Below are positions 4,846 through 47,059 of a DNA stretch of 64,000 nt, piece after piece (within the stretch, counting starts at the first letter, position 1; every line of letters starts with the position of its first letter). The translations under genes were made by a program, and so were the position numbers. Origin of the DNA: a bacterium (GTDB taxonomy: Bacteria > Patescibacteriota > Minisyncoccia > Phycocordibacterales > UBA5272); assembly GCA_023267635.1 (NCBI GenBank), contig JAHFMX010000001.1, positions 3,800 through 67,799 on the forward strand, in the 5' to 3' direction. The notes under the pieces are model-generated. The model was not told where the DNA came from, did no database searches, and worked only from the letters and a program-made list of their open reading frames with translations.

Positions 4846-5757
4846 TTAGAGTTCGTTTTTAAATTCCTGACTATATTCTGATAAGCACACCTTCCAGTTG
4901 CGCATATGGTTAATACCACGAAGTGTGAGTTTTGTGTTGAGTAATTTTTCAGAAGCTGGTCGTGGGGCAAAGTATTCATTTTTGAAGTAATCAGAGTTCA
5001 CTCGGGTAACTTTAATGGAATCTGATAATCCTAGTAATGAAATAAATTCTACAGCAACATCATAACGACTGCAGCTTCCTTCACATACCTGATTGTATAA
5101 ACCATAGTATCCACTATCTATAACCTTTAAAATGGAGTCCGCAAAGTCTACAGTGTAGGTGGGGGTGCCTAGTTTATCGTCCACCACAAAAAGCTCTTTT
5201 GAGCCAGATTTAATCTGTTTATAAATTTTGTTTATAAATTTTTTATCTTTTTCTTTTCCTCCGCCCATCATCCAACCTGCGCGGAAAATATAGTAATCAC
5301 TAAGATATTTTTCTATGAACTGTTCACCGTAATATTTTGATTTTGCATAGTAACTTAGCGGATTAGGGGTATCAAAATCTGTATACTCATCTTTTTCTCC
5401 ACCAAATATACCTGCTGTAGAGATGTACACAAGAAGTGCATTATGTTTCTTTGAAAGGACTGCCGCATTTTCTGCCCCAAGAGCATTTGTGGCCCAAGCA
5501 TTTTCTATGTTTTTTTCGCAATATTCAAGATCTGTGAGGGCAGCTAAGTGAAAAACTATAGTTGGTTTCCATTCAATAAAAACCTGCTCGTATTCTTGTA
5601 TGCTTCTTACATCAAGCTTGCTAAGCCAAGGTTCATTAAGATCAATATCAGTTGCACGCACATTCTCTAACCCATATTTTTCAATGGATTTTTGATAAAA
5701 AGCTTTTCCCAGCATCCCGCCGCAACCAGCGATAAGGACGCGATTATGAGGAGTCAT
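4846..5757 (-). CDS. NAD-dependent epimerase/dehydratase family protein (nucleotide-sugar reductase, RmlD-like)
   Basis: N-terminal VLIAGCGGMLGKAF glycine-rich NAD-binding motif and YAKSKYYGE (YxxxK catalytic dyad of SDR-like sugar enzymes); 303 aa. Confidence 0.55.
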   Translation of the reverse strand: MTPHNRVLIAGCGGMLGKAFYQKSIEKYGLENVRATDIDLNEPWLSKLDVRSIQEYEQVFIEWKPTIVFHLAALTDLEYCEKNIENAWATNALGAENAAVLSKKHNALLVYISTAGIFGGEKDEYTDFDTPNPLSYYAKSKYYGEQFIEKYLSDYYIFRAGWMMGGGKEKDKKFINKIYKQIKSGSKELFVVDDKLGTPTYTVDFADSILKVIDSGYYGLYNQVCEGSCSRYDVAVEFISLLGLSDSIKVTRVNSDYFKNEYFAPRPASEKLLNTKLTLRGINHMRNWKVCLSEYSQEFKNEL

Positions 5758-5833
5758 GGTGGAAAGTATAGCATAGCCAGCAAGGTTTTATATAAATATT
5801 CCCATCAGTAATGACACAGTCCAATATTAATTT

Positions 5834-6952
5834 GTGCATGGTACACTGTGTTACATAATGAAGGATAAAAAAGTGCATTTTTTCAAAGAATTCGTATTTT
5901 TTTCTGCTGGTCCAGTTGGCGATCATGCCCTAATCGTAGATTATGCTAATCGTTTTTTTGAGTCTACAAAAAAAGCTTCAGTTATTTTAATGAAGCACCC
6001 CAGCGCTTTTCTTCAGGATATGGCAATTCCATATTTTGATCACATTTCTTATATTGGTTTCTCAGGTTTATTGGGAAAATTGAAAATGATTTCTTTTGCA
6101 GTTTCTAGTATATGGATTCCAAGATGCTATGTGCTAGTGCTCCCGATACCGCCTCCCACTTACTTAAAAGTATTTTCATTTTTTATACGGTTTTTTACAC
6201 GAAGCAGAATGGTAGCCCTTGATTCCTTGTGTGGGTTTTCTATTCCAGGTGGGCCAGTTCCTTCAGGTCAGTTTGTTGGCAAAGGAAATTATATTCCAGC
6301 GAACGTCTCCACAGAACTTTATTATGAGGGGGCGAATCGTATGCTTGTATTCTTGGGCTATGAACCTGTTGCGCAAGTTCCTAGACTGAATTACATAGAT
6401 ACTCCCGAAGTACTTTCACAGTTTAATCTAAAGGATAAAAAGTATATAGCGATGCATGTGCGCGCATCTGGTTTTGATAGATCACTTCCAGCAGACAGAT
6501 GGAATAAGATTATTAAGGAAGTATGCGAAAAGCTTCCTGAGGTGGTATTAGTTTTTACGGGAATAAAAGAAGATATTCCCTTTATCCAAGAATCACTGGA
6601 AGGGGTTCCTCAGGAAAGAATGAGACTTATCATTGGAGTGACTATGCAGAAACTTCTTACAGTGTACGCTCACGCCAAATTAAACATTACCGTCCATACA
6701 GGCAATGCTCACCTTATTAATATGCTTCATGTTCCGACAGTTACAGTTAATTTCAAAGGTGTCCACATGTTCAGATTTAGTTATAACGAGAAAGGAGTGG
6801 AATTGTTCTCTCCAGACGGGTGTATGTGTCACCCCCTTGAGCGGAAATGTTCTCTAGTTGAATATAAGGGTCAGGGATATATGGCATGTCTGTTTAACAT
6901 TAAAGATGAAGATGTAATTAAGGCAGTTATTCAAAAATATAATGAAAAATAA
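5834..6952 (+). CDS. Glycosyltransferase family 9-like (heptosyltransferase-like)
   Basis: C-terminal pattern LVFTG...TGNAHLINMLHVPTVTV resembles the GT9 donor-binding region (DTGxxHLAaAlgtPtVal). Confidence 0.4.
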   Translation: MHGTLCYIMKDKKVHFFKEFVFFSAGPVGDHALIVDYANRFFESTKKASVILMKHPSAFLQDMAIPYFDHISYIGFSGLLGKLKMISFAVSSIWIPRCYVLVLPIPPPTYLKVFSFFIRFFTRSRMVALDSLCGFSIPGGPVPSGQFVGKGNYIPANVSTELYYEGANRMLVFLGYEPVAQVPRLNYIDTPEVLSQFNLKDKKYIAMHVRASGFDRSLPADRWNKIIKEVCEKLPEVVLVFTGIKEDIPFIQESLEGVPQERMRLIIGVTMQKLLTVYAHAKLNITVHTGNAHLINMLHVPTVTVNFKGVHMFRFSYNEKGVELFSPDGCMCHPLERKCSLVEYKGQGYMACLFNIKDEDVIKAVIQKYNEK

Positions 6953-8189
6953 AATAAACAACGGAATAACGTGGCTTGGAGAAAAATTTGAATTTGATTC
7001 TCATTATTTTGTAAAGAACTCACTCTGGCTTTTAATGGGACAGGTGATGATGTCTCTTGCTGCGTTGCTTGCCACAGTTTTTTTGGCAAACTTTGTTTCA
7101 CAACAGAACTTAGGAGATTACCGTATGATTATTGCTATTTACGTAACTTTGACATTCTTTGCTCTTCCCGGTGTTGGACTAGCCCTTATGCGCTCTATAG
7201 CAAATGGTAATGATGGAGCGATGAAAGAAGCAATTAAAATAAAAACAAAGTTTTCAATCCTATCAATTGTTATTGGAATGTTACTCGCTCTCTATTTTGG
7301 TATTTATAGAGAAAATATTTATTTCGGTTTAAGTATATTAATTGCAACGCTATGTTTACCGTTTATAGAAAATTTTTCTCTATATACCTCCTTTCTCCTT
7401 GGAAAACATGATTTTAAATACAGTTCTTTTAATGCAGGTCTTGTTAAATTGTTTTCTGCTATATCAGTAATATTTGCTTCTTATTTTTACCCAACGGTTG
7501 TTATTTTAGTTGCCGCCTTTTATCTATCTCAGGTGATTGTAACTTTTTTGCAATATAAAATTTTACTTAAAAAATTCCCTATACAAAACAATAAAAAAGA
7601 TGAAGAAATGCTTCCTTATGCCAAGCACATAACGTATGCAGGGATTTTTAGTATGCTTTTTGGACAGGCGGATAAATTTATTCTGTATCATTTTTTTGGT
7701 CCTGTTGTTCTTGCTAAGTTTTGGATAGCGTCAACTATTCCACAAGAGATCAGTAGAGTGATTGGGACTGTCTCAAAAGTGGTTTTTCCTAAATTTGTTA
7801 AGATGGAACATAATCATACAACCAAAAAAATATTATTTAAAAAATTTTGGTTACTAACTATTTTTCTTATTTTATTGTCGTTAATGTATTCTTTAATCGC
7901 TTATCCATTTTTTGATCTCTTTTTTCCTCAATATATAGACGAAGTTCCAAAGTCAATGGTACTTATGTTTGCTTTTGCCGTCACCCCAAGTATGCTTGTT
8001 TGGCACTATTACACAGCAAAAAATAATATTAAAGTTATATACATCAATAGTATGGTTGACCCTGTACTTCAAGTGACTTTATATATTATTTTAATTCCAT
8101 TCTTAGGTGTTTGGGGTTTGGTATATGGTATTTTTATAAAAACAGTAATAATGAACGTATTAGCTTGGCACGTGTTCAGTAAGTACTAA
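6942..8189 (+). CDS. Oligosaccharide flippase (Wzx-like, MOP superfamily) / polysaccharide biosynthesis protein
   Basis: 415 aa, 12-14 predicted TM helices, typical Wzx size and topology, within a glycan cluster. Confidence 0.6.
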   Translation: MKNKINNGITWLGEKFEFDSHYFVKNSLWLLMGQVMMSLAALLATVFLANFVSQQNLGDYRMIIAIYVTLTFFALPGVGLALMRSIANGNDGAMKEAIKIKTKFSILSIVIGMLLALYFGIYRENIYFGLSILIATLCLPFIENFSLYTSFLLGKHDFKYSSFNAGLVKLFSAISVIFASYFYPTVVILVAAFYLSQVIVTFLQYKILLKKFPIQNNKKDEEMLPYAKHITYAGIFSMLFGQADKFILYHFFGPVVLAKFWIASTIPQEISRVIGTVSKVVFPKFVKMEHNHTTKKILFKKFWLLTIFLILLSLMYSLIAYPFFDLFFPQYIDEVPKSMVLMFAFAVTPSMLVWHYYTAKNNIKVIYINSMVDPVLQVTLYIILIPFLGVWGLVYGIFIKTVIMNVLAWHVFSKY

Positions 8190-19155: not shown

Positions 19156-19420
19156 ACTTCCATTGTCATCTGTTTTCGACAGTCTGTCCAGAGATATGGA
19201 GTTTTAAGATTACAGCCATTCTTCGGTGGACTACGGGCACGAATTTTGGAATCAAGTTGCTAAAGAAATAGAATATTTAGCGTGGGTATTAAAAGAATAA
19301 TGTGCTAAAAATAAAGGTTAAATTAAGCGAACTTGCATTTGTGGGTTCAAACCTGTAGAGTAAGCGTTCTGAGGAGGTCTTAGTTATACACTGTGCAATA
19401 TACACACAAGTAGATATACT

Positions 19421-19450
19421 AGAAATACAAAACACCCCCAAAGGGGTGTT
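19421..19450 (-). terminator. Rho-independent terminator downstream of the small Cys-rich ORF (minus strand)
   Basis: aacacccc-caaa-ggggtgtt hairpin followed on the minus strand by UUUUGUAUUUC. Confidence 0.5.
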
Positions 19451-19474
19451 AGGGCAAAAGGAGGTTCGAGCTCC

Positions 19475-19717
19475 TTAAGCAGAACGCTTAAGCATAAGTC
19501 CTGTCACAATTTGTGATGGGATTTTTGCTTTCTTGGCGTGAAGTGCACAAGAACGGGTGTCCTTGATAGGCCAGCACTTGTGGCCATATGTTGATGCATA
19601 GCGACGCTTGCCCTTGCGGGTTACGTAAGCCACACAAATGTCTGCACATGTGCAGACTGGGTTTGAATTAGACATAAGTCTGTGTTCAATTTCCCACGAG
19701 GGTTGTCCTGACAGCAT
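19475..19717 (-). CDS. Small cysteine-rich basic protein (hypothetical; possible Zn-ribbon)
   Basis: 80-aa ORF (66 aa from the internal M) with CxC...C...C...C and many K/R; no confident match to ribosomal L28/L31/L33/S14 recalled; may instead be part of a non-coding region. Confidence 0.25.
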   Translation of the reverse strand: MLSGQPSWEIEHRLMSNSNPVCTCADICVAYVTRKGKRRYASTYGHKCWPIKDTRSCALHAKKAKIPSQIVTGLMLKRSA

Positions 19718-19739
19718 CAGCTTGTGGACATCTGCACCC

Positions 19740-20107
19740 TGAACCGCTCACCTTTTATGTAGGAAAACGGCGGTTAAACAAAAACTGGGCAAGAATCTAT
19801 TGCTAGATTTTGCCCAGTTAAAACCCAACTATTGCGTTCGGTACTAACTACACAAAATCTAATCTGGCTACGTTTCGTAATTATGATGAAGATTAGATAA
19901 CAAAAAATCCCTTAGACCGACACTCTCACGGGAACGGCAGTATTGCTACTGTTGTTCCCATAACTAGTGGATTGCCAGCATGGAACATTTTATTGTTCCC
20001 GCTAGAATGCCCGTCTAAAGGATTTCGGTGCTACTTCGTGGTGTCGGTCGCTCTGTTGTGCTTAGTATCCCTACCAAGCGAGCTTCTGTATTCAGTTTTC
20101 AATCTCA
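19740..20107 (-). ncRNA. Candidate structured non-coding RNA (unclassified)
   Basis: On the minus strand there is a 13-bp closing stem GACCGACACCACG...CGUG(AGA)GUGUCGGUC enclosing nested hairpins GGGAAC..GUUCCC with a CAGUA-GCAA-UACUG GNRA tetraloop; no long ORF; the promoter is immediately upstream. Confidence 0.3.
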
Positions 20108-20144: not shown

Positions 20145-20300
20145 CTATTTTTGAGTTTTTTCGTTAAAATTTCCCTCAAGAAAAATTGTTTTACCATCTT
20201 TTTTTATAATTTTACCTTCACGCAAAAGTCTGTTGTGTATTTGTTGCAATACCTCTCCTAGTTCAGTTACAGCTTTTATTGTTTCTTCAGATAGTTTCAT
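20145..20300 (-). CDS. Small ORF (51 aa), hypothetical; translationally coupled to the upstream small ORF
   Basis: Hand translation: MKLSEETIKAVTELGEVLQQIHNRLLREGKIIKKDGKTIFLEGNFNEKTQK. Its ATG overlaps the stop of the upstream ORF in an ATGA; not in the ORF track (<60 aa). Confidence 0.3.
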   Translation of the reverse strand: MKLSEETIKAVTELGEVLQQIHNRLLREGKIIKKDGKTIFLEGNFNEKTQK

Positions 20301-20467
20301 TTTGTTTTTTGTTGTATTTTTAGTTTTAACCCCTCCGAAAGAACTGTCAGCAACAAATCGCCAATTTCATTTATTTCTTCGTCATTAAGTTGTTGTGAAA
20401 AACCTTCTCTATAAGAATTGTCCATTGCCGTCCTTAAATCCTTTATGGCTTTGGTAGAGAGTTGCAT
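20297..20467 (-). CDS. Small ORF (56 aa), hypothetical
   Basis: Hand translation: MQLSTKAIKDLRTAMDNSYREGFSQQLNDEEINEIGDLLLTVLSEGLKLKIQQKTK. ATGA overlap with the next ORF. Confidence 0.3.
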   Translation of the reverse strand: MQLSTKAIKDLRTAMDNSYREGFSQQLNDEEINEIGDLLLTVLSEGLKLKIQQKTK

Positions 20468-20668
20468 ATTTATTCTTTTTTATAGAGGTGAGGATTTTGT
20501 TCTCTGTCCGCTTTGAATAACCATTCAAAAATAGGTACAAGTCCTTTAATTTCTTCTTCAGTTAATTTTCTTTGCTTCTTATTTTTCATTTATTCTTGTT
20601 CTAGTAGTTCACGATGTTCACATGGTCACCATTATGTCTGATATATGAGATTTAATTATGTATAAGTA

Positions 20669-21730
20669 CTAAAACGTTGTAGGTAACATATCAAAAAGTC
20701 TCTTTGTTTCAATTCTTATTTGCTCTCTTAACTTAACATCCATAATAGCAGATTCAAGTAAGTCCATAGCAGTCTTAACATTTCCAAATTCTCCTGCCTT
20801 CACCATTCTTGCTAGGTTGAGGTACCCCACTAAAGCAAAACGAACATATTCTTTGTGTTTATAAAGTAAGTTGAAATCAGGGGTTGGGATATTGTTGTGT
20901 GCTTTAGGGCTGTCTTTAGCTATTTGTGCAAAAAAAGAACCGTGAACAAAGTCACACCTAGCTTTGTATAAATCTTTTTTAATTTCATCTTCAATAGTCG
21001 GAAACCTTTCAGAAAGAAGAACGGCGACTCTTTTTCTCAGGCGATAAACAACCTCTTGGTTTTGAGAGTCTCCTGCTGTAAATAATGCTTCAAGAATAGT
21101 AGCCATTTCAGCAGATTCTCTTTGCCAACCAAAAGATGTTTTAGAATTTTCATAATCCTTAAGACCGTAATAGAGGAACGATGCTGAAAACAATCTCCAA
21201 TCTTCTTTATCCCAATGTTGTATTCTATCCAAATTCCAAGAACCATATTTTGTCTGTACAAGTAACAATTTATAAAAATTAACAAAAGCCTCTGTTTGAA
21301 AAAACGAAGCAGTCTGTGTATGAAAATAATCAAAATAATTTTTTTCGTGTTCTGGTCTAGTAATACCCATATCATTAACATAACAGAGTGGGTACAAGAA
21401 GTTAGGAGAATAAAGGTTCAAAAGGAAAATAGTTTCTGCATAGTTAAAAATACCTTCTTCAATTGTGTCTGGAATAAGTAATCCCCACGAAACTTTTTCA
21501 AATTGTTTTTCTGTTATACCGAATAAATCTCTACTTTCGGCTAATTTATAATTTCTCTTAACTGTATCATTTATTGGAGGTATTTTTTGCTGTATTTTCT
21601 CTACAAATTCATCAAGAGTGAACTGTTTTAAATCCCAACATTCATAGCCATCTTTGATAGCTAAAACTTTATCCTTTTGTGTTATAGGGTTTCCTGTAAA
21701 GGCAAGAAATATGGTCTTTGTTCTATTCAT
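20669..21730 (-). CDS. Hypothetical protein with C-terminal HEPN-like Rx4HG motif (putative RNase/abortive-infection-type), third gene of a 3-gene operon
   Basis: 353 aa; ...YKARCDFVHGSF... gives R-x4-H-G, followed by an amphipathic or hydrophobic helix; its start overlaps the upstream gene's stop by 4 nt. Confidence 0.4.
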   Translation of the reverse strand: MNRTKTIFLAFTGNPITQKDKVLAIKDGYECWDLKQFTLDEFVEKIQQKIPPINDTVKRNYKLAESRDLFGITEKQFEKVSWGLLIPDTIEEGIFNYAETIFLLNLYSPNFLYPLCYVNDMGITRPEHEKNYFDYFHTQTASFFQTEAFVNFYKLLLVQTKYGSWNLDRIQHWDKEDWRLFSASFLYYGLKDYENSKTSFGWQRESAEMATILEALFTAGDSQNQEVVYRLRKRVAVLLSERFPTIEDEIKKDLYKARCDFVHGSFFAQIAKDSPKAHNNIPTPDFNLLYKHKEYVRFALVGYLNLARMVKAGEFGNVKTAMDLLESAIMDVKLREQIRIETKRLFDMLPTTF

Positions 21731-22857
21731 ATAATTTTTCTATTACCCGCACGTTTTAATAATTTATTAAACAGTCTTCGTGAAGAGCTTCTATAAACAA
21801 AAGCTTTAAGTTTTCTTGGTGTTGGGAAAGAAATATTATCAGTATACTCTTCCCACTTAATTTCATAGTCACAAAAATAACCTCTTCTACTTTTTTCAAA
21901 CTGCTTTTTTACTGCTAAGACAAAGAAGAGTAAAGCTATATCAATATGCGACTGCCACTTCTCAAAATTAAAATTGCTCAGTTTTACCTTATCACCGTGA
22001 ACTATACTATTTCTAAGTCGGTAAAACTTCTCTGCCCATATTCCTTTTTTACTCAGATATTCAAGGCTTTTAGGATTTGTCTTCTTATCCCAATAACTTA
22101 CATACTTTTTTTCTCCATCTAAATCGGAAATTGCTTGAATATTCCTTTTGAAGTGTTTTCTTTGTTGGGTTTCGGGAATAGAAAAGATAGCTTCAAAAGC
22201 AGACATAAATAAAAGGATACGTGCTTTATTACTTAAATGATTAGAGTTGTAATAGCCCTCCATACAGATTTGTGTTGAGTTAATTATTCTTCTGTATATT
22301 TTTGGTTTATGAGTTTTTAAATAAGTGAGTTCTGAAAAAATTTCGCCATCAAGAGTATAGTTGGAGGGGGTTGGAACAAAACTTGGTGTTAGAAAGCGAA
22401 TTTTATCTAGCGTATATCCAGCCTTACTGAATCTTACAATTTCACCAGAAGTCTCAGCTACGTGGTCGCTATCTAAAGTAAAGTTTTGGTAAATAACGTC
22501 AAAGTTTTCTGATGTTGCCATCCGATGCCCAGAATTAACATTAGAAATCCCAGTATTGTTGTTTGAAACGAAAGAAAGAAACAAGGTTGCTCTTGCCTCT
22601 TGAATTAGCTCAATTTCCTTTTGTGTAAAAGGTTGAAACTTGTTTCCTGTTATTTCTATAACGCCAATGTTTTTTACATTCCCGTGATGGGTTATGTGTG
22701 TAGCAAAGATTTTTTCAAGTTTTGTTTTTAAGACTTCATCTTTAATATAATCATCTTTTTTCTTATCAAAATTCCAAACCCTTAAGAAACCAAGATTAAT
22801 TTCGTCAAAACCATTCATAGATAAGTATGGGAAATATGCTACTTGGTAATAGTTCAT
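21727..22857 (-). CDS. Hypothetical protein with C-terminal HEPN-like Rx4HG motif, second gene of the operon
   Basis: 376 aa; ...YRLRNSIVHGDK... gives R-x4-H-G, followed by a hydrophobic helix (IDIALLFFVLAV). Confidence 0.4.
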   Translation of the reverse strand: MNYYQVAYFPYLSMNGFDEINLGFLRVWNFDKKKDDYIKDEVLKTKLEKIFATHITHHGNVKNIGVIEITGNKFQPFTQKEIELIQEARATLFLSFVSNNNTGISNVNSGHRMATSENFDVIYQNFTLDSDHVAETSGEIVRFSKAGYTLDKIRFLTPSFVPTPSNYTLDGEIFSELTYLKTHKPKIYRRIINSTQICMEGYYNSNHLSNKARILLFMSAFEAIFSIPETQQRKHFKRNIQAISDLDGEKKYVSYWDKKTNPKSLEYLSKKGIWAEKFYRLRNSIVHGDKVKLSNFNFEKWQSHIDIALLFFVLAVKKQFEKSRRGYFCDYEIKWEEYTDNISFPTPRKLKAFVYRSSSRRLFNKLLKRAGNRKII

Positions 22858-22859
22858 AC

Positions 22860-23840
22860 CTATACATTTTCAAACTTAACACCTACTCTTCCTGCCAAGA
22901 CAAGAAAGAAATATAAAATCAAGTTAGAGTTTGATAAGTTACACTCCTGAATACTTATTTGTCCGTGGGCAACCTTATGTCGTAGGGTGTAACCAAGAGG
23001 TTCAAATAAAACAAACTTTATCTGTTCACAAAAGTCCCGCCCCCATTTATTTTGAAATTTTTCAGAACTTAAATACTCAGAAGATAAAGTTTTTATTTGG
23101 GTAGAAATCTCTTTCCCTCTGTTCAAGGAAACGATATCTATTCCAAGCTTTTCTGAAATATATAGAAATACTCCTTCAAATTGAGGTATCAAAATATGAA
23201 TAGCAGAAACATAATCATTATTTAAATATTTATCGATGCCCACCTCTATAAGTTTCAAATTATTTTCTGGGAAAATACCAGAACTACGAAGATAACTTAT
23301 AAAATTTTCTTTATCTAATCCTTTTTCTTTTAAACTTGTAAAAATTCTAGAGAGAAAAAGTTCACTAATTATTCCCTGACATATGGAATACATTTGTATG
23401 GTCCAAGCAAGGTTTCCATCAGTTCCACCCTTTACAAGATGGCCAGATTCAGACCTAGTAGACAAGTTAGCTATTTGGTAAGAAATTGGCATATTCCCCT
23501 GAGCAGTTTTCTCAACATCAGCCATTACTGGATACAACACTAAGCTTGCTCCTATCTTCTTTAAGATTTCTTCAATCGTTCCCTCTAAGATTGGGTTAAT
23601 GGCCTTTTCTATGTCTTCGTTAGGAACTTGTTGCTCAACAGAAAGTTCTTTATATGCAGATTTTGATTTACGATTCATCTCGACAACTTTATTTTTGCAA
23701 AAAGTGACAGAAGTAGAGTCTCCTAAGTTGCGAGCAATTTCGGTTGCGTCGGTATATAAAAAAGAGGATGAGAAAAAGTCCCCACTTTCTTCTGCAGTCT
23801 TGGCTTCCTCTAGCTTCAATTCTAGGTCTTCTTTTTTCAT
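22860..23840 (-). CDS. Hypothetical protein with C-terminal HEPN-like Rx4HG motif, first gene of the operon
   Basis: 326 aa; ...TLRHKVAHGQIS... gives R-x4-H-G, followed by a hydrophobic helix (LILYFFLVLAG). Confidence 0.4.
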   Translation of the reverse strand: MKKEDLELKLEEAKTAEESGDFFSSSFLYTDATEIARNLGDSTSVTFCKNKVVEMNRKSKSAYKELSVEQQVPNEDIEKAINPILEGTIEEILKKIGASLVLYPVMADVEKTAQGNMPISYQIANLSTRSESGHLVKGGTDGNLAWTIQMYSICQGIISELFLSRIFTSLKEKGLDKENFISYLRSSGIFPENNLKLIEVGIDKYLNNDYVSAIHILIPQFEGVFLYISEKLGIDIVSLNRGKEISTQIKTLSSEYLSSEKFQNKWGRDFCEQIKFVLFEPLGYTLRHKVAHGQISIQECNLSNSNLILYFFLVLAGRVGVKFENV

Positions 23841-23929
23841 TTGAGTATTGCTTACTTGCTTAATATATCACAAATATAACAATTATGATTACCTCCTTAT
23901 TTTAAGGATTTTAATGGTATAATTACTAT

Positions 23930-24583
23930 ATGAGTTCAGGTGAATTACAAGTTAATACGCCAAACAAATCTATAATCGTGGAGACAAAAACTGCACTAAC
24001 TTTTGGTATCGCTAGTGCATTAAAAAAGAAGATACTTAACGGTGAAGCATTATTCAAAAAAGACTCTCCAGTTATGATTGAAGTTGAGGCAAATACAAAC
24101 GGAGAAATATCAAATAAAACCATTACAATTCCTGCAAATACTGTTATGTCTTGGATTAAAAGAGATATGGTTATACCAGACACAAAGAAGACACTAAGAG
24201 ATTATCTAAACGAAGCCAGAGAAGAGCGAGCTGATGCACTAACAAAAAGGCAAAAACAAGAGATTAAACACCTTGCAATGAGGGAATTGGTGAAGATGGT
24301 TGCTATGCCAACTGAAAGCAATAGGAAGGAGATTATCGTTAACTATGCTAAAGATAAAAGTGGTGATGATGTAGAGCAAGGCAAAGCCGTAAGAACAACC
24401 ATAGGAGATGATGCCGAGAAGATGAGACTTAAAGCAAAAAACCTTCACTATATTTTGGACCACCTCGATGATGACTTTAAGAAACAGAAAGAGAAGTTAA
24501 ACAGTACACCACATACCTTCTCATTCTTGGCTTTAGCTGAAAAAGAACAGGAGATGATTAGAGAAGGGAAAATAAAGGCTTAA
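23930..24583 (+). CDS. Hypothetical protein (highly charged, K/E-rich)
   Basis: 217 aa, no recognisable motif. Confidence 0.3.
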   Translation: MSSGELQVNTPNKSIIVETKTALTFGIASALKKKILNGEALFKKDSPVMIEVEANTNGEISNKTITIPANTVMSWIKRDMVIPDTKKTLRDYLNEAREERADALTKRQKQEIKHLAMRELVKMVAMPTESNRKEIIVNYAKDKSGDDVEQGKAVRTTIGDDAEKMRLKAKNLHYILDHLDDDFKKQKEKLNSTPHTFSFLALAEKEQEMIREGKIKA

Positions 24584-24595
24584 TAAAACTTTGTT

Positions 24596-25537
24596 TTAGT
24601 TTTCTTTTACAAACTTGTCGTAGGCTTGCTGGATTAAATAAATACCATACTCTAATTCTTTCTCACTACTAATTTCAACGGATGATATATCTTGTTTATA
24701 GTATTTAATACTGTTCTCGTTATAATAGACTTTTTTCTCTGGGTCTTTAAAATCTTCTGGTTTGGTTCTAGTAAAATCAATACGTACTTTATTACTAGAA
24801 ATATGACAATAGAAAATGTTTCTCCAATTATTTGGTAATTGGAAAGATATGTAAGACTTTGTCGGATGTGCTACAACTTCTGAATCAATTATTGAAATCT
24901 TTTCTTTCAATTGTGAATAAAGTTTCTTACCATTCCCATCTGGTTTACTGGAAAGATAGTCATCTTCTGAATAATTCTTTACTTCTTTAGAAACTTTATT
25001 AACCTCACTATTTGAAATACCTAATGTCTCTATAGAAGCTTTAGTGCCAGAGCTTTTAATTTGTAGATATTGCAGTACGTCTCCTTCATACCTAGTAACT
25101 TCCCACAATTCAATTGGTAAATCTCTAAAGTTAATAGCTTCAAGCTGGTGAACTGTGAAAGACCTCGTTAGAAACAAAACTCTCATTTGGGACCAATCAA
25201 AATCTGCTTTCCCTTTTTTCTCTTGAAACTTTTTGTTAAATTCTAAAACAAACTCTGCCTGATTATTTAAAATTAAAGAAAGGTATGCAAAACCTTGGTC
25301 AACAACACTAAAACTTTTTTCACGCTTATATTCAATTACAACAAAAGATTTTTTATAAGTATCGTATGCGAGAGTATCTATACGTAAATTATTATGCTGA
25401 AATTCACTAGCCACAAATTCGAGACCAAATATCTCGTTTAAATTTTTTTCGGTTACACTTTGTAACTCTCTTTCTAAAGAAAAAGGTTTTTCCTTTATTA
25501 GAGCTAACTTCTCCTTGCTGTTACGATAAAGTGACAT
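24596..25537 (-). CDS. Putative PD-(D/E)xK nuclease superfamily protein
   Basis: N-terminal block LRIDTLAYD...SFVVIEYKREK matches the D...(D/E)xK core of restriction-endonuclease-like folds (similar to DUF1016/YhcG-type proteins as recalled); 313 aa. Confidence 0.4.
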   Translation of the reverse strand: MSLYRNSKEKLALIKEKPFSLERELQSVTEKNLNEIFGLEFVASEFQHNNLRIDTLAYDTYKKSFVVIEYKREKSFSVVDQGFAYLSLILNNQAEFVLEFNKKFQEKKGKADFDWSQMRVLFLTRSFTVHQLEAINFRDLPIELWEVTRYEGDVLQYLQIKSSGTKASIETLGISNSEVNKVSKEVKNYSEDDYLSSKPDGNGKKLYSQLKEKISIIDSEVVAHPTKSYISFQLPNNWRNIFYCHISSNKVRIDFTRTKPEDFKDPEKKVYYNENSIKYYKQDISSVEISSEKELEYGIYLIQQAYDKFVKEN

Positions 25538-25690
25538 ATGTTTATATATTTCTATTATACACTCTTTAAAATGGTGTGCGAATGTCTTTGTTAGCTTTAG
25601 CTGAAAAAGAACAAGAGATGATTAGAGACGGAAAACTAAAGAGAATATAATAATATAGATGGCATAAGGTATAATTAAACCATTTCAATT

Positions 25691-28217: not shown

Positions 28218-30902
28218 TTACTTACCAAATAGTCTTACCAACTCATCAAAGTTTTTTGCAGGGTTCTTTTCGTACTCTTCTTGCTTCACGTAAAGGGCTT
28301 TATATATAACCTTGCTCTGTCTTGCGTTTACATCCTCACACCACTTTTGAAGTCTTTCAAATTTAATTTTATCGTCTTCTTCTTCGCGACCCTTAGTTTC
28401 AATAATAAAAACTTGTTTGTCGTCTACTTTTACGAAGAAATCTGGGTAATAGGTAGCAATAAAACCTTCACTGTTTTTATACTCAATACGAAGTGCGTTA
28501 GCTTCTTTATTTTGGAAATTTTTAGCATAAGAAATAATCCCGTCACATTTTTCTAGAAAAGCACAGAACTCAAGTTCAAAATTACTATCACCAACAATTT
28601 TATTGAATACTGATTTTTTAGGAATGAGAAATGATTTATCATTTACAACAAAAGGTCTTGCCTCACTAACTTTTATATAATTCTTTATTTCAGTATCACC
28701 TTTATCTTGGACCGTAAGTTCATTTATAGATTTTTTGAATGCCTCTTTTATAAGTTTTATATATTCAACCTCAGACAGATTTCGTAACACATTCAAATCA
28801 GTAAGCTCTACTTTATCTTCAAACATATTATTCTCAATAAAGTCTTTTACTTTTGCAAATAAAATATCATAACATCCAAATAGCCTCATCTCTCTCATAA
28901 CAGCTTGAGCAAAGAAACCTACAACACTTTGGTAGTTTGGCTCAATATTACCATCAAGAATGGTTGTATGGTGCTTTTCTTCAGCCACAACATCTTTGAA
29001 GACTATCTCTCTTTTCTCTTCTTCTGTAAATGATTTTATTTTTACTTTTTCATTACCAAAATTTGATACATCTAAATTAGAAAGATTTTTATATTCCCTC
29101 TGTATTCTTGCTGTCATTACAGGTATTTCAATATCAAGTTTCTCAATATCTTTATTCTCATTTTCTTTGTCCACTTCAATAACTGTCGGTGAAATTGGTT
29201 TTGAACCACCACCCATAAGTCTCTTTTCAAGAAGAACACCTTCTCCTTTTATGCTTTCAATGAAATCCATAAAAGCTGGAGTCCCAATAACACTCACATA
29301 TTCATCAATGTCATCTCTACCAAAATACATCCTTCTCAAACCTCTCCCCAATGTCTGTTCTGGTAAGATTTTACTATCGGAAGCAAACGGACGAAGTCCA
29401 ACGATAGTGGTCACATTCTTAACATCCCAGCCTTCTTTAAGCATCATAACTGAAATAATTACCTTGTAAGGACTTTCCCAACTATCAATCTTGTTTGACT
29501 GCTTACGAAGCTCATCTAACTCTTCCTTGTTCTTACCTGATATTGTTTCTGATATTTCACCACTTTTATTTGTGTGAATAGTTAGGACTGCACCTTTCAA
29601 ATATGCAAAACTACTTTCTATATACTCAGCAACTTCATCACAATTCTTTGTATCGTCAGTCATAATAAAAAGTATCGCTTTCTTTCCTGTCTTTTGATGC
29701 TCTTCATATACTTTCTTCCATTCCTCAATACCAAGGTTGATAAAATCTCTATACTTCTCACTAAATAAAGTACTTTGCTTTTCTATCAATTTCCCTCTAC
29801 TTGCTTCATCTGGTACAACAGGTTGCTTTACTACTCTTTGATGTATTGCTTCAACCAGAGGATAATCTGATATAGTTTGTACGAAGATAGAACCATCCTT
29901 TTTCTTTGGTGTTGCTGTAACGTCAATCTGCAAAGAAAGTGCTCCACCTTTTTGTTTGAGTTTATTATCTATGTCACGAATAGATTTTAACCAAGCGTTC
30001 TCTTCGTGAATATGATGTGCCTCATCATTGATAACAATTAGTTCATCTATGTCACGAATAATCATACCCAAATCAACAGTTGAGTCGTTTGTTTTCGTTA
30101 CTGGTTTATCACCAAGAAAATATCCAGTACTATCTTCATCATCAGAACTAAATTCTTTTATGTCACTTTCAAAAACTCTGTGTATGTTCGTAAGAAATAT
30201 ATTTCCAGTATCTGAAACATTTTTCAAATCATCTTGTAAATGCAGAGTGATTTGAAAATCATCTTGCCAGTTTTGACCCATATATCCATTATCTGGCAAC
30301 ACTGGGTCCAAGAAAAATATCTTATTACCCTCAAAGTCGGATTTTAGTCTTTCAAACACAATAACGTTCGGAGCAATCAATAAAAAGTTATTTGCAAGCT
30401 TTGAACCTTCTTCGTATAGCTTATGGAAATATGCCCACGCAATAAGTAAACTCATTACCTTTGTCTTACCTGCACCTGTAGCCATTTTTATAACAAGACG
30501 AAGCCATTCCTCGGTGAACATCTGTGGACTTAAAACACCAGTAGAGTTGTAGCGTATCAAATCATATTTATCTTTTACTTGAGCAACCTCATAGAGCCAT
30601 ATGACAGTTTCTAAAGCTTCTCTTTGAGAAAAATAATATCGGAAATTATATGAAGAGCCGTCGTTATTATAGAGAGTGTGCTCTTCTTTGAACCACCATG
30701 TAAGAAGTGACTTTGATGTCTCGCTGGCACCGTCATAATTATTATCTCGCCATTCTTTTACTTTCTTACGAAGCTCAGCAACGAGTGGAGGAATAAGTTT
30801 TTCAAAACCTTTCTCACGTAAAACTTCATCAGCAGGAAACCATCTGATTTCAGGGTTAAGAATTGCATATGGGTCTCTTGGAAAATCTTTGTGTAGTGCC
30901 AT
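28218..30902 (-). CDS. Type III restriction enzyme Res subunit (SF2 helicase + C-terminal PD-(D/E)xK endonuclease)
   Basis: Walker A MATGAGKT, DEAH box VINDEAHH, C-terminal YYPDFFVK...FIIETKG nuclease motif; directly downstream of the mod gene. Confidence 0.7.
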   Translation of the reverse strand: MALHKDFPRDPYAILNPEIRWFPADEVLREKGFEKLIPPLVAELRKKVKEWRDNNYDGASETSKSLLTWWFKEEHTLYNNDGSSYNFRYYFSQREALETVIWLYEVAQVKDKYDLIRYNSTGVLSPQMFTEEWLRLVIKMATGAGKTKVMSLLIAWAYFHKLYEEGSKLANNFLLIAPNVIVFERLKSDFEGNKIFFLDPVLPDNGYMGQNWQDDFQITLHLQDDLKNVSDTGNIFLTNIHRVFESDIKEFSSDDEDSTGYFLGDKPVTKTNDSTVDLGMIIRDIDELIVINDEAHHIHEENAWLKSIRDIDNKLKQKGGALSLQIDVTATPKKKDGSIFVQTISDYPLVEAIHQRVVKQPVVPDEASRGKLIEKQSTLFSEKYRDFINLGIEEWKKVYEEHQKTGKKAILFIMTDDTKNCDEVAEYIESSFAYLKGAVLTIHTNKSGEISETISGKNKEELDELRKQSNKIDSWESPYKVIISVMMLKEGWDVKNVTTIVGLRPFASDSKILPEQTLGRGLRRMYFGRDDIDEYVSVIGTPAFMDFIESIKGEGVLLEKRLMGGGSKPISPTVIEVDKENENKDIEKLDIEIPVMTARIQREYKNLSNLDVSNFGNEKVKIKSFTEEEKREIVFKDVVAEEKHHTTILDGNIEPNYQSVVGFFAQAVMREMRLFGCYDILFAKVKDFIENNMFEDKVELTDLNVLRNLSEVEYIKLIKEAFKKSINELTVQDKGDTEIKNYIKVSEARPFVVNDKSFLIPKKSVFNKIVGDSNFELEFCAFLEKCDGIISYAKNFQNKEANALRIEYKNSEGFIATYYPDFFVKVDDKQVFIIETKGREEEDDKIKFERLQKWCEDVNARQSKVIYKALYVKQEEYEKNPAKNFDELVRLFGK

Positions 30903-30904
30903 AT

Positions 30905-33013
30905 TTATATTTTTACATCAATCACCCTAGTAGTATCATTACCAAAAATGTCTACGATTTTTACTGCAACCTTATAGTCTCCTTTCGGTAATTCCTTTGG
31001 AGCTGAAACTAGCTCTAGACCTCTATTTTTCTTTGTACGGAAACTTTGCCATTCGTTATCAAAAATATAATCACCAGTCCAAACATCTTTTTCGTTATCA
31101 CCATCCATAACTTTAATAACTTCTTTTCTGTCTGCAAAATTATAATCAACAGCCCAGTAATCAATCCAGTCAGTCCATTTTTTAGTAAGAACCTCTCTTG
31201 AAACAATCTCAGTACTCTTATCTTTTGACACTTTTATCACTTGCCCATTCTCAACAATGACCTTTGACCTTCCTGCTTTTAACTCCTCATCAATAGCACC
31301 ATTGTCTTGATTGTAAAACACGGAAAAATCAGTAAGCTCAATAGAAAGCTCTTTCATATTTCCTCTACCTTTAATAATTGACTTAACATCAATATAAGCA
31401 ACATCATAGAAATTAACTTGACCTTTTTCTACTGCACGTTTATCAAATACTTCTCGTGGAATTATCTTGAATGCAATATCAACACCTTCTTTATGAAAAC
31501 CGTGTCTATCAATACCCATATCATAATCAAATGCTAAAATATCAATCTTTGTGAAATCTTTCCCTTTACATTCATCAATCACATCTTGAATAAATTGTTC
31601 TGATGTAGGCATATTTATTGGACCAACAGCCACAAGTCTGTCTCGTTTTTTACCAACTACATTTACAAAGCTATCAATTGGCTCCGCTTTATACGCAGAA
31701 AGAATAAGTTTAATAAACTCTTTTTCTTTTTTATCTGCTTGCTTAAATCTTTCTTCAGCACGCAAATCATCATTAGTGTTCAAGAAACTTTGCCTTTCAT
31801 ATCTACCCATATTAAGTATTTCAAAAGCACGAAAATCTTTCCCACTCTTCTTTAGTTCTCTTTGTGCACCAATCATTCTTTTTCGCGAAGTATGAATACC
31901 AAACTTACCTAAGTCTGTCCCAATCCATTTTCTTCCAAGTTTTTCAGCAACTGCTAATGTTGTTCCAGAACCACAAAAAAAGTCAGCAACTAGGTCATTA
32001 TTATTTGTTGATGCTTTTATTATTCTCTCGAGTAATTTTACAGGTTTTTGTGTTGGGTATCCAAGTAGTTCATCTCTTGATATTTGTCCACCAGCTGGAA
32101 TATCATCCCACCAATCCTGAGGAACTCTTCCTTGTTCATATTCTGAAACATCTTTCCCAGCAAAGGGTATACCTCCAACTTTTGACTCAGCGTATTTTCT
32201 TCTATTTAAAGTTGCTTCATCATAAGGAACTAAAATATCTTTAGCGTTGAAGATAGGATTTCTAGATTTTGAATAAAATAAAATAGTGTCATGCTTTTTA
32301 GGGAAGGCTGTCTTTACTGGTGAAGGACCTTTGTAAGCCCATATAATCTCATTCATAAAATTATTCACTCCAAATATTTCATCAAGTATCAAACGCATAT
32401 GAGCACTTAGTCTCCAGTCACAATGAACATAAATACTACCATCTTCAGCTAAAAGTTCGTGCATTAGTTTTAGTCTTTCATAAATCATTGCAATAAAACT
32501 ATCTGCTCCTTTACCCCAAGTATCTCGATACGCAATCTCTTCAATAACTGAAGGTTTTTTTGTAAAACTTTCTGTGTCATCGCCTTCACCAATTTCAATA
32601 TCCATCGAAAAATCAGCTCCCACATCAAAAGGAGGGTCAATATAGACAAGCTTTAGACCTCCTTGTGCTTCTATCTCCTTTCTCATTGGACCGTTCTTTA
32701 AAGAAGAAAGAATAAGTTTATTGTCACCCCATATAAGTTTATTGGTCCAACCAGCAACTTGCTTACCTGAAAAATCAAACAGAGTACCTCTACCATCACC
32801 AAACTCCTTACCTTCTCTTGGCTCATCAATCTGTTCGATTACTTGGAATGGTAAAACAACATTTGTCACTTCATTTGACTTACCATTCCAAACAAGCTCA
32901 ACTTCTCTGTCATCTTTGAAAAGCAAAAAACGATACTTTTCTGGAAGTTCTTTACCAGCTTCAAGATACTTCATAATATCTCTTTTTTCGTTCTCCGAAA
33001 GATTTAATGCCAT
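30905..33013 (-). CDS. Type III R-M system DNA methyltransferase (Mod), beta-class N6-adenine/N4-cytosine MTase
   Basis: Motif IV YIDPPFDVG precedes motif I DFFCGSGTTLAVAEKLGRKWIGTDL; 702 aa; 2-nt gap to res. Confidence 0.7.
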   Translation of the reverse strand: MALNLSENEKRDIMKYLEAGKELPEKYRFLLFKDDREVELVWNGKSNEVTNVVLPFQVIEQIDEPREGKEFGDGRGTLFDFSGKQVAGWTNKLIWGDNKLILSSLKNGPMRKEIEAQGGLKLVYIDPPFDVGADFSMDIEIGEGDDTESFTKKPSVIEEIAYRDTWGKGADSFIAMIYERLKLMHELLAEDGSIYVHCDWRLSAHMRLILDEIFGVNNFMNEIIWAYKGPSPVKTAFPKKHDTILFYSKSRNPIFNAKDILVPYDEATLNRRKYAESKVGGIPFAGKDVSEYEQGRVPQDWWDDIPAGGQISRDELLGYPTQKPVKLLERIIKASTNNNDLVADFFCGSGTTLAVAEKLGRKWIGTDLGKFGIHTSRKRMIGAQRELKKSGKDFRAFEILNMGRYERQSFLNTNDDLRAEERFKQADKKEKEFIKLILSAYKAEPIDSFVNVVGKKRDRLVAVGPINMPTSEQFIQDVIDECKGKDFTKIDILAFDYDMGIDRHGFHKEGVDIAFKIIPREVFDKRAVEKGQVNFYDVAYIDVKSIIKGRGNMKELSIELTDFSVFYNQDNGAIDEELKAGRSKVIVENGQVIKVSKDKSTEIVSREVLTKKWTDWIDYWAVDYNFADRKEVIKVMDGDNEKDVWTGDYIFDNEWQSFRTKKNRGLELVSAPKELPKGDYKVAVKIVDIFGNDTTRVIDVKI

Positions 33014-37953: not shown

Positions 37954-39492
37954 ATGCAACCTAATTTAAAAAGAGCTGTTGGATATTATCGTGTATCCAC
38001 AAAAGAACAAGTTGAGGAAGGGAACAGTCTTTCTACTCAAGAGAAAATTTGTAAAGAATGGTCTCGTAAAAATAATTACGAAATAGTAGAACAGTTTATT
38101 GAACAAGGAGAGAGTGCGAAAACTGCGGATAGAACAGAGTTACAAAAACTTTTTATTTATTGTGCTAATAAAAAGAATAACATTGAAGCTGTTATCATCT
38201 ACAAACTAGACCGTATAAGCCGTAACACTGATGACTACAGTCAAATTCGTCTTCTGTTAAAGAAATATGGGGTAGAAATAAAATCTACCACAGAGTTCTT
38301 TGAGGATACTCCTGTGGGTCGTTTTATGGAGAATACAATGGCTAACATTGCACAGTTTGATAACGATATACGCTCTGAGCGTTCAGGTGGCGGTATGCGA
38401 GAAGCTGTTCGTGATGGTCGTTATGTGTGGATGGCACCTGTTGGATATATCAATACTAAAGTAAATGGTAAAGCTACCATTGCTCAAGACCCACTAATGG
38501 CTTCACTTGTTCGTGAAACTTTTGAACTTATTTTAAAAGGCACTCGCACAGTAGAAGAGGTTCGAGTAATTATGGAAGAACGAGGTCTTACTCTTAAAAA
38601 TGGTAAACCACTTGGAAAGTCATACTTCTATAAAGTATTTAAGAATAAGCTATATATGGGGATAATTGAAAAGTTTAATGAAACCCACAAAGGTCTATTT
38701 GAACCAATCATCTCTGAGGATGTATTTAATCAAGTCCAACGTATTCTAAGTGGGAAAGGACGTAAGGAGGTTCAGTATAAAAAAGATAGTGATGATTTTC
38801 CTCTTCGTCGTTTTGTGATAGACAAAGAGAGTAGAAAAATTACTGGAAGTTTTTCAAAAGGAAGAAAAGGTATCAGATATCCATTCTATCGCTTTGGTGG
38901 GAACGGCTCGAATTATAACCGAGATAAATTTGAAGAGCGGTATCAATTATACGTAGATAAATTTTCTTTTACAGAAGAACAGAAGGAAAAATTAGCATCT
39001 AAGATACGAGAACATTTCGGTGTGGCAGTAGAGAAAGAAAAGAAGGATGTTAAAAAACTTTCTTTACGCATCTCTGAACTTCAAACACAACAAACCTCAC
39101 TTATAGATAAAAATCTTAAAGGCATTATTAGTGACGAATTACTCACAAGGCAACTTAGCACCATTGAAGAAGAGTTAATCAGTACAAAACTTAATCTCAC
39201 AAATGCAGAGCAAGTTACTTTTGATGTTGATAAGGCGATGAGTATAATTTCACCATTCCTGAAGACACCTAGTGAGGTGTGGGAGATGGCAGAAATTGAT
39301 AATAAACTCAAATTACAGTGGTTCCAATTCCCATCTGGAGTGTTCTTTGATGGAGAAATATTTGGAACCACTAAAGTAGCTAGTATTTACAATGTAAAAT
39401 CCACGTTTTTGGACGTGGATTCTACTGCTGTGGGCGATAGAGGAGTCGAACCTCTGACATCCACAACGTCAATGTGGCGCTCTACCAACTGA
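37954..39492 (+). CDS. Large serine recombinase (resolvase/invertase N-terminal domain + recombinase domain + zinc ribbon)
   Basis: N-terminus AVGYYRVSTKEQ (catalytic Ser motif) ...IYKLDRISRN; 512 aa; the last 62 nt (about 20 codons) overlap tRNA-Val on the opposite strand. Confidence 0.85.
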   Translation: MQPNLKRAVGYYRVSTKEQVEEGNSLSTQEKICKEWSRKNNYEIVEQFIEQGESAKTADRTELQKLFIYCANKKNNIEAVIIYKLDRISRNTDDYSQIRLLLKKYGVEIKSTTEFFEDTPVGRFMENTMANIAQFDNDIRSERSGGGMREAVRDGRYVWMAPVGYINTKVNGKATIAQDPLMASLVRETFELILKGTRTVEEVRVIMEERGLTLKNGKPLGKSYFYKVFKNKLYMGIIEKFNETHKGLFEPIISEDVFNQVQRILSGKGRKEVQYKKDSDDFPLRRFVIDKESRKITGSFSKGRKGIRYPFYRFGGNGSNYNRDKFEERYQLYVDKFSFTEEQKEKLASKIREHFGVAVEKEKKDVKKLSLRISELQTQQTSLIDKNLKGIISDELLTRQLSTIEEELISTKLNLTNAEQVTFDVDKAMSIISPFLKTPSEVWEMAEIDNKLKLQWFQFPSGVFFDGEIFGTTKVASIYNVKSTFLDVDSTAVGDRGVEPLTSTTSMWRSTN

Positions 39493-39503
39493 GCTAACCG
39501 CCC
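39431..39503 (-). tRNA. tRNA-Val (anticodon GAC)
   Basis: Hand-folded cloverleaf: acceptor GGGCGGT/ATCGCCC, D-arm GCTC-AGTTGGTA-GAGC, anticodon stem CCACA/TGTGG with loop TTGACGT, T-arm AGAGG-TTCGACT-CCTCT, discriminator A; no encoded CCA. Confidence 0.8.
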
Positions 39504-39544
39504 GAATGTCTTAAATATACCATATCAAATAGACCTCTCCCAAG

Positions 39545-39573
39545 TTGAAAGAAGTGTCATTTCGTGGTAGTAT
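39545..39573 (+). promoter_or_regulatory. Sigma70-like promoter upstream of tRNA-Glu (TTGAAA-17-TAGTAT)
   Basis: -35 ttgaaa at 39545..39550, 17-nt spacer, -10 tagtat at 39568..39573, about 45 nt upstream of the tRNA. Confidence 0.4.
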
Positions 39574-39620
39574 ATTTTTTACTTGGCTGTACTATTGTTA
39601 CCTGGTACAGACATATTGAC

Positions 39621-39692
39621 GGCCCCATCGTCTATCGGTTAGGACACCGGCTTTTCATGCCGGTAAGCGGAGTTCGACTCTCCGTGGGGTCA
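39621..39692 (+). tRNA. tRNA-Glu (anticodon TTC)
   Basis: Acceptor GGCCCCA/TGGGGTC, anticodon stem CCGGC/GCCGG with loop TTTTCAT, T-arm CGGAG-TTCGACT-CTCCG, discriminator A. Confidence 0.8.
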
Positions 39693-39798
39693 CCGAGTCG
39701 AGTGCTAGTTCGAGCACTCGAGAAGGGTCGTCACAGACCCTAAAAACAAAAAGAGCTAACGAATATTTCGTTAGCTCTTTTTGTTAGAAAAGTTACTT

Positions 39799-46939: not shown

Positions 46940-47059
46940 GGAACGAAGGCGGACACCGAGCCATAGTTGTCATTGGCATTCGACACGTTGTTGGTGTTGA
47001 ACTTGAGCTTGTCGTCGTTGAAGTTGAAGAGCGGAGACCCCGAGAAGTCGCCATCCGCA
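46940..47059 (-). repeat. DGR template repeat (TR)
   Basis: 120-nt match to 47441..47560 with 18 mismatches, every one at a TR adenine in the minus (coding-sense) orientation; AAC-rich when read in frame (NFNDDKLKFNTNNVSNANDNY). Confidence 0.8.

Follow-up and report, generated by a model that had tools for sequence, protein, structure and literature searches.

Three adjacent genes of an uncultured bacterium of the Candidate Phyla Radiation (CPR/Patescibacteria; Minisyncoccia, UBA5272) raise the question of what they do together. They are found in a stretch of 64,000 nucleotides which we call the window: positions 3,800 to 67,799 of contig JAHFMX010000001.1, assembly GCA_023267635.1. We name the genes A, B and C in the order in which they are read. 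All three encode predicted HEPN proteins, which belong to three distinct families and share only the fold of the superfamily. The cassette which they form is carried by a mobile island rich in defence genes, and it is also found elsewhere with the same gene order. By analogy with characterised HEPN enzymes, the cassette most likely represents a set of co-expressed, sensor-coupled abortive-infection ribonucleases (RNases) which back up the neighbouring restriction-modification (R-M) systems. The genes, their predicted catalytic motifs and the region upstream of them are the following:

22860-23840, minus strand: gene A, 326 amino acids, a short HEPN protein of the DUF4209 (C6orf70/ERMARD) type
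21727-22857, minus strand: gene B, 376 amino acids, a distant Apea-like HEPN protein
20669-21730, minus strand: gene C, 353 amino acids, from a family without a catalogue entry which is widespread in CPR/Patescibacteria
22962-22982, minus strand: predicted HEPN catalytic motif of A, RHKVAHG in the translation, invariant across the A family
21994-22014, minus strand: predicted HEPN catalytic motif of B, RNSIVHG in the translation; R, H and G are invariant, N is found in 43 of 44 sequences
20939-20959, minus strand: predicted HEPN catalytic motif of C, RCDFVHG, from the translation and the family alignment (family consensus RSAFVHG)
23841-23929: divergent intergenic region of 89 bp upstream of A, the presumed promoter region of A-B-C

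An earlier description of this DNA, which we call the sequence-only reading, had proposed three tandem, translationally coupled genes on the minus strand, each with an Rx4HG motif. Its coordinates for the open reading frames (ORFs) are exact, and a motif is located in each protein. The junctions can be read directly: A and B are separated by a gap of 2 nt (TAG-GT-ATG), B and C overlap by 4 nt (ATGA). The start which gives B its 376 amino acids is backed by N-terminal residues conserved in its homologues. Among the 52 ORFs of at least 150 amino acids in the window only three have R-x4-HG, and these are A, B and C. From composition about 0.017 such motifs are expected per protein of 350 amino acids, so that a chance origin of the three is excluded. 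The 89-bp region is the sole non-coding gap upstream of the coupled genes; a consensus promoter scan gave 7 sites with 15.5 expected, and the scan for promoters and terminators was no better than in shuffled sequences.

Catalytic HEPN domains have two sequence hallmarks: an Rx4-6H motif with a polar residue after the R, and an acidic residue in helix 2 (PMC3710099). Both are present in A, B and C, as we could see directly in alignments of 47 sequences of the A family, 44 of an extended B family and 59 of the C family. Within the motif, R, H and G never vary in A and in the extended B family; in C the R and G are invariant and the H is found in 58 of the 59 sequences. The residue which follows R is polar: H in A, N in B, either S or C in the C family. 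A glutamate in the preceding helix is also invariant (E222 in A, E222 in B, E205/E214 in C), 44-65 residues ahead of the motif. In A the whole set E222, R287, H288, H292 and G293 is invariant. The catalytic signatures are thus under strong purifying conservation.

Structure models were made for B and C. The model of C has a predicted local distance difference score (pLDDT) of 88.9 and a predicted template modelling score (pTM) of 0.89; the values for B are 86.2 and 0.86. The four-helix up-and-down bundle of HEPN domains is found, with the motif at the C-terminal end of a helix in both models (residues 270-286 in B, 246-262 in C) and a hydrophobic helix after it (304-323 in B, 286-311 in C). 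The best structural matches for the HEPN domains of B and C are HepT structures (5yep, 7ae2, 8xdj). The sequence-only reading had described the hydrophobic helix as a feature added to the motif. The helix is indeed there, but its position in the models most likely makes it the final helix of the HEPN core (H4) and not an extra element. A membrane anchor was also considered for it and rejected, since its position fits that core helix. The HEPN assignment is supported for all three proteins by the conserved Glu, R, H and G together with the motif at a helix end and the hydrophobic helix which follows; A also matches models in Pfam and PADLOC, as described below.

It had also been suggested that the three genes are an array of paralogs. 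This part did not hold. Pairwise BLASTP among A, B and C detects no similarity, and full-length comparison of the families with hhalign gives probabilities of 3.4% at most. When the profiles are trimmed to their HEPN regions, A and B align motif on motif (E 3.9e-4, 35% probability) with their helix-2 Glu residues coinciding, B and C align with E 0.028, and A and C align off the motif. Recent paralogy is rejected: the BLASTP comparison is empty, and the profile-profile matches (E 4e-4 to 0.03) are weak and centred on the motif. The divergence of the N-terminal regions had been described correctly: they are unrelated to one another by BLASTP and by profile comparison, and in the models the N-terminal domain of B is beta-rich while that of C is alpha/beta. 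By these sequence comparisons each of the three proteins belongs to a HEPN family of its own, with an unrelated N-terminal domain; only the superfamily fold is shared.

The three families differ in how well they are covered by catalogues. A matches the Pfam family PF13910 (DUF4209) in residues 246-311, with E 1.2e-4 and 22.5 bits against a cutoff of 22.3, and its motif region aligns with the DUF4209 domain. It also matches the PADLOC candidate PDC-S39 (E 8.9e-17, profile positions 261-565 of 595). Full-length PDC-S39 has about 600 amino acids, with an N-terminal DUF7380 and a C-terminal DUF4209 region; A corresponds to its C-terminal part and lacks the DUF7380 region. Many of the 59 homologues of A have a precomputed PF13910 hit, and distant relatives on plasmids are annotated as DUF4209 proteins. 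DUF4209 is the C6orf70/ERMARD family of HEPN proteins, predicted to be catalytically active (Anantharaman et al. 2013; PMC3710099). It is found in operons related to R-M; the 2013 study described HEPN genes linked to R-M from both the DUF4209 and the ApeA clade (PMC3710099). A resembles these genes in its setting. It differs from PDC-S39 as catalogued, a single-gene candidate, in standing at the head of a coupled array of two or three HEPN genes.

The N-terminal domain of B is beta-rich; beta-hairpins are inserted into its four-helix HEPN core, and a beta-hairpin extension follows at the C-terminus. Its score with HEPN_Apea (PF18739) is below threshold (E 0.27, 12.1 bits against a cutoff of 24.4). 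In the extended family four of the 44 members reach HEPN_Apea at E<=0.01, the best with E 2.1e-5, and none of the 44 matches a PADLOC model, that of ApeA included. A sequence search with the B profile retrieved no solved structure. ApeA is a single-protein HEPN tRNase of abortive infection which cuts the anticodon loops of tRNA and is activated by deoxydinucleotides bound in a pocket outside the active site (10.64898/2026.01.26.701840). Like B, it has a HEPN domain reported to be closest to HepT, and both have insertions in it. Their architectures differ: the monomers of Ec2ApeA are predominantly helical, with an N-terminal domain (1-198), a Mid domain (199-309) and a split HEPN_ApeA domain (335-583) (10.64898/2026.01.26.701840), whereas B has 376 amino acids and a beta-rich N-terminal domain. 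Membership of ApeA is rejected on both grounds, the score and the architecture; B is at most a distant ApeA-like relative.

C consists of an alpha/beta N-terminal domain of unknown type (about residues 1-170) followed by a C-terminal HEPN bundle. No model in Pfam or PADLOC matched it. Its family is large: 227 hits in a database clustered at 90%, and in one clustered at 50% identity 249 representatives, with E below 1e-30 for 51. Nearly all relatives come from metagenome-assembled genomes (MAGs) of CPR/Patescibacteria: Paceibacterota, Gracilibacteria, Falkowbacteria, Saccharibacteria and others. Ten distant hits of the C profile, proteins of 450-500 amino acids which align in the HEPN region only, also belong to no Pfam or PADLOC family. 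A fold search of the viral database BFVD with C gave nothing at E<=0.001; tblastn found no match for B and C in a plasmid collection, nor for C in a phage collection. A search of NCBIfam with the three proteins gave no match, and sequence searches of the PDB with profiles A1, A3 and A4 only gave artefacts: designed repeat proteins which accumulate tiny scores, a Polycomb fragment and a de novo repeat.

The cassette is not restricted to the window. It recurs in at least four other contigs, apparently including an NCBI contig of 6.7 kb. We have seen the triad directly, with the same order and overlapping junctions, in locus L083 from Logan, in L084-86 from ENA and in L090 from NCBI (GCA_021733565.1); the L numbers designate the loci compared. 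These triads adjoin a divergent gene for an HTH_17 protein of 59 amino acids and an R-M system (either MmeI-like with SNF2/PLD, or Type III with RhuM), and have a serine or tyrosine recombinase nearby. The HTH_17 gene has no homologue in the window and is therefore not a part of the cassette.

The cassette is a modular stack and not an obligate trio: its genes are known singly and in other combinations too. A and C are found without B in L087/88, where they follow SLFN_AlbA_2 and UvrD genes, and in L089. A and B without C are found in L098, beside an Mrr-like restriction endonuclease. In L092/93 a distant C-like HEPN protein, which we call C' (motif RSAWVH), is followed by B. A is alone in L094/L095, it is alone or with other partners across L094-L097, and it follows a Type I HsdR gene in one locus. 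C has neither A nor B in 22 of 24 genome loci; it adjoins a large serine recombinase in 9 of the 24 genomes and a Type I R-M system in L001/L011. Relatives of B with 24-47% identity have neither A nor C in all 58 metagenome loci. In L099 B comes after another PADLOC candidate, PDC-S54. There the full-length PDC-S54 gene (L099:4737-5999, E 3.8e-131) ends 1 nt upstream of the B-family gene, and it lies downstream of a gene for a helicase of 1512 amino acids with a Top1 zinc ribbon. Across five triads the pairwise identities of B and C correlate with r=0.97, a value which comes from only five taxa. A is present in them as two types, 45-50% identical, which are discordant with B-C. We conclude that B and C are inherited as a unit, while A has been exchanged or evolves faster.

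A recurrent neighbour of C is a larger relative of A. A full-length PDC-S39 protein (about 605 amino acids, DUF7380 and DUF4209) is encoded directly upstream of C in L005 and L010. The ORF for this protein extends over the start of the C gene in L010. In L005 (positions 5189-8086; JAQTPY010000003.1, Candidatus Paceibacterota isolate STB_127) PDC-S39 continues in frame into C as one ORF of 965 amino acids, with DUF7380, DUF4209 and the motif LRNDFAHG; at the junction ...VKKREENN is followed by MNRTRKMFFAF... with no stop codon in between. A protein of the DUF4209 type and C are thus coupled unusually often and fused once, which makes a HEPN heterodimer of A and C a real possibility. In three other CPR genomes a conserved protein of about 700-730 amino acids is encoded directly upstream of C, overlapping or abutting it (L001:4840-6999, L002:925-3030, L003:4810-6996). 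It has no Pfam or PADLOC hit and is another recurrent partner of C; in L001 a Type I R-M system precedes it.

In the window the cassette is placed at one end of a low-GC stretch of about 20-47 kb, where GC is 0.28-0.38 versus about 0.40-0.44 over 11-20 kb. The cargo of this island includes two Type III R-M systems, a UvrD/GajB-like helicase with a Top1 zinc ribbon, PDC-S18, Prim-Pol and a reverse transcriptase; it also holds two large serine recombinases. That the operon is part of a defence island on an integrative element, as the sequence-only reading had it, is well supported: low GC, Type III R-M, helicase, PDC-S18 and recombinases are all found. The neighbours which define this context are:

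24596-25537, minus strand: PDC-S18/DUF5655 gene (PADLOC PDC-S18, E 3.3e-93 over the full length; Pfam DUF5655)
28218-33013, minus strand: Type III R-M system, mod 30905-33013 and res 28218-30902, a possible first-line partner of the cassette
37954-39492, plus strand: large serine recombinase (Pfam Resolvase and Recombinase), the presumed integrase, at the far end of the island
39430-39503, minus strand: tRNA-Val, beside this recombinase
39621-39694, plus strand: tRNA-Glu, beside the same recombinase

The Type III system has the Pfam domains N6_N4_Mtase and ResIII and matches the PADLOC models MTase_III (E 7e-119) and REase_III (E 3.7e-21). The other serine recombinase, the other Type III R-M system and the reverse transcriptase are situated beyond the first recombinase. 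A search for direct repeats of the attachment-site type bounding the island gave none that was convincing.

The analysis itself shows how the genes are arranged, the HEPN fold with its conserved motifs, and where the genes recur and in which context. How the proteins might work can be modelled on characterised HEPN enzymes, from which their RNase activity, dimerisation, trigger, target and defence phenotype are all taken over here. We consider it probable that A, B and C are three different endoribonucleases, each with a sensor and a HEPN domain, which are co-transcribed and coupled, travel as cargo of the island and act in abortive infection as an independent stack. Each N-terminal domain would be a sensor or regulator. 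The HEPN domains would dimerise and form a composite, metal-independent RNase site, by analogy with HepT, PrrC/RloC, RnlA and ApeA. In uninfected cells the enzymes would be inactive, restrained through the N-terminal domain. A phage cue, or the disabling of the adjacent R-M system, would release cleavage of tRNA, mRNA or rRNA; translation would then stop and the infection would abort. With three different N-terminal domains the range of triggers may be wider. The best working model for each of the proteins is the architecture of ApeA, non-catalytic N-terminal domains followed by a C-terminal HEPN domain in a ligand-activated abortive tRNase.

A role as second line behind R-M has precedents. 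PrrC is a latent HEPN anticodon nuclease which is held by a Type I R-M system and released when the latter is inhibited; PrrC-EcoprrI, RloC and Ymh-paraMORC are HEPN RNases encoded beside R-M genes and have been proposed as a second line of defence (PMC3710099). The cassette genes are beside Type III, IIG or I R-M systems in the window and in L083, L084, L090 and L097. They differ from PrrC and RloC by the absence of an ABC-ATPase or MORC domain (no ATPase domain of Pfam or NCBIfam is matched by A, B or C) and by the presence of three HEPN genes instead of one. Furthermore the type of the R-M partner varies, many solo loci have no R-M, and the link with R-M is a genomic one only. The HepT/MntA toxin-antitoxin system (type VII) is similar in that HepT is the best structural match of B and C and that B has a motif of the RNxxxH type. 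Membership of this system is rejected: neither in the window nor in L083-L099 does a gene for the MNT nucleotidyltransferase adjoin the cassette.

Several points weigh against independent abortive-infection RNases. No antitoxin or obvious inhibitor gene is present which could silence three active RNases, and the N-terminal domains have no recognisable sensor fold. PDC-S39 itself is a computational candidate, for which we have found no paper that tests it. The fusion in L005 comes from a single MAG and could be due to a lost stop codon or an assembly error. CPR bacteria are episymbionts; with such a host, the HEPN RNases could instead serve in conflicts between cells or in the stabilisation of the element.

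The coupling can also be interpreted in terms of one machine: A, B and C would be obligate partners, joined through HEPN-HEPN interfaces into a multi-subunit RNase with the N-terminal domains as joint sensors. We consider this unlikely. The translational coupling, the order A-B-C fixed in at least five independent contexts, the co-evolution of B and C (r=0.97) and the coupling (L010) or fusion (L005) of PDC-S39 with C all agree with it, and the active sites of HEPN enzymes are normally composite across a dimer (10.64898/2026.01.26.701840). However there are loci at which each of the genes lacks the other two (C at 22/24 loci, B at 58/58, A in L094/L095), the pairs A-C, A-B and C'-B all exist, and A lineages have been swapped against B-C. 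The catalytic motif is complete in all three proteins: none of them looks like a dedicated non-catalytic partner. Cas13 has two unlike HEPN domains, and heterodimers of A, B and C might make up a multi-sensor RNase with multiple active sites, a protein-only analogue of Cas13 specific to the mobile elements of CPR/Patescibacteria; this is likewise doubtful. The PDC-S39-C protein of L005 would then be a single-chain form, and C a shared partner recruited by different upstream sensors. The likeness of the cassette to Cas13 and to Csm6-Csx1 is limited to the HEPN fold; a CRISPR array, a CARF domain and a guide RNA are all absent.

If the function is not defence, the cassette may be an addiction module which retains its element instead of stopping phages, with one or more HEPN toxins neutralised by a neighbouring gene. 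Its location on integrative elements with recombinases would suit such a role, and three small ORFs are found just downstream of C in the window. These ORFs are not conserved in the other triads, no MNT or other known antitoxin is adjacent in any locus, and the proteins have 320-380 amino acids with large extra domains, versus 130 amino acids in the minimal HepT toxins. The consistent neighbours are R-M and other defence genes, and we find this explanation rather improbable. Least credible are housekeeping or regulatory processing of RNA, or non-catalytic HEPN proteins that bind RNA or ligands, clustered by accident. The C family is fairly widespread in CPR, but the distribution is patchy and no two genomes share the same neighbourhood; the genes are set in a low-GC island with R-M and recombinase neighbours, and the catalytic R, H and E residues are strictly conserved. 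The relatives are in mobile or R-M-linked contexts and not among housekeeping genes, which supports the sequence-only reading.

The three genes had been presented as a candidate new defence module. This has to be qualified: A falls within PDC-S39, which is already listed as a candidate, HEPN RNases linked to R-M are a theme established since 2013, and the trio is not obligate. The cassette is thus not categorically new. What is new is its arrangement, in which three unlike HEPN families form a conserved and translationally coupled array on mobile elements of CPR, together with the uncatalogued C family (about 250 clusters at 50% identity, matched by neither Pfam nor PADLOC) and the recurrent pairing of PDC-S39 with C, fused once. 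Little work has been done on immunity in CPR/Patescibacteria, whose genomes are tiny; the locus shows stacks of predicted HEPN RNases next to R-M systems on their mobile islands. PDC-S39 gains a recurrent partner gene, so that tools which treat it as a single gene may miss a component. The modular layout of A and B-C, with a natural A-C fusion, also offers a simple system for the pairing of unlike HEPN domains at composite sites. If the proteins are independent abortive-infection RNases, as we favour, the cassette is a useful but incremental entry in the catalogues.

Other features of the window were also noted. The PDC-S18 candidate, a further PADLOC defence candidate on the same island, is two genes away from the cassette. 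On the same side there is a direct repeat of 57 nt, 88% identical, at 24521-24577 and 25585-25641, which encodes ...LALAEKEQEMIR(E/D)GK(I/L)K. One copy forms the C-terminus of an unknown ORF of 217 amino acids (23930-24583), and the second copy immediately precedes the gene of the UvrD-like helicase. On the other side of the cassette, directly downstream of C at the edge of the island (about 20147-20589, minus strand), there are the three small tandem ORFs, with about 39, 56 and 51 amino acids as judged by eye; the one of 51 amino acids ends similarly to the repeat peptide (...LLREGKIIKK). Further out, between the island and a matrixin-like peptidase gene, about 0.9 kb (19156-20100) is poor in ORFs and higher in GC, with hairpin-like segments and an ORF of 80 amino acids rich in Cys and Lys (19475-19717, minus strand). 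This region could hold an integration site or an undescribed RNA; an Rfam search of the ORF-poor stretch downstream of C (19.2-20.6 kb) gave no hit.

At the other end, tRNA-Val and tRNA-Glu are flanked by the recombinase at 37954-39492 (plus strand), whose ORF enters the tRNA-Val gene, and by the one at 39799-41082 (minus strand); a perfect hairpin of 19 nt is found at 39745-39785. The layout of 39430-41082 suggests two integrative elements placed back to back at a tRNA locus. The second Type III R-M block has the reverse transcriptase (45490-46605, minus strand, 371 amino acids, Pfam RVT_1) at its far end. In PADLOC this protein matches a generic reverse transcriptase model (E 7e-51), a Cas1-associated reverse transcriptase and DRT UG17; it may be the enzyme of a group II intron or a defence-associated one. 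Just outside the low-GC island, in a GC-rich segment (0.56 at 47-48 kb), another direct repeat of 57 nt, 89% identical, is present at 46940-46996 and 47441-47497, 501 nt apart; it is probably a repeated domain in a coding region of the minus strand. Finally, a LOOT RNA (RF03000) is found by Rfam at 62172-62293 on the plus strand, over the full length of the model and with 83 bits versus a gathering score of 46.

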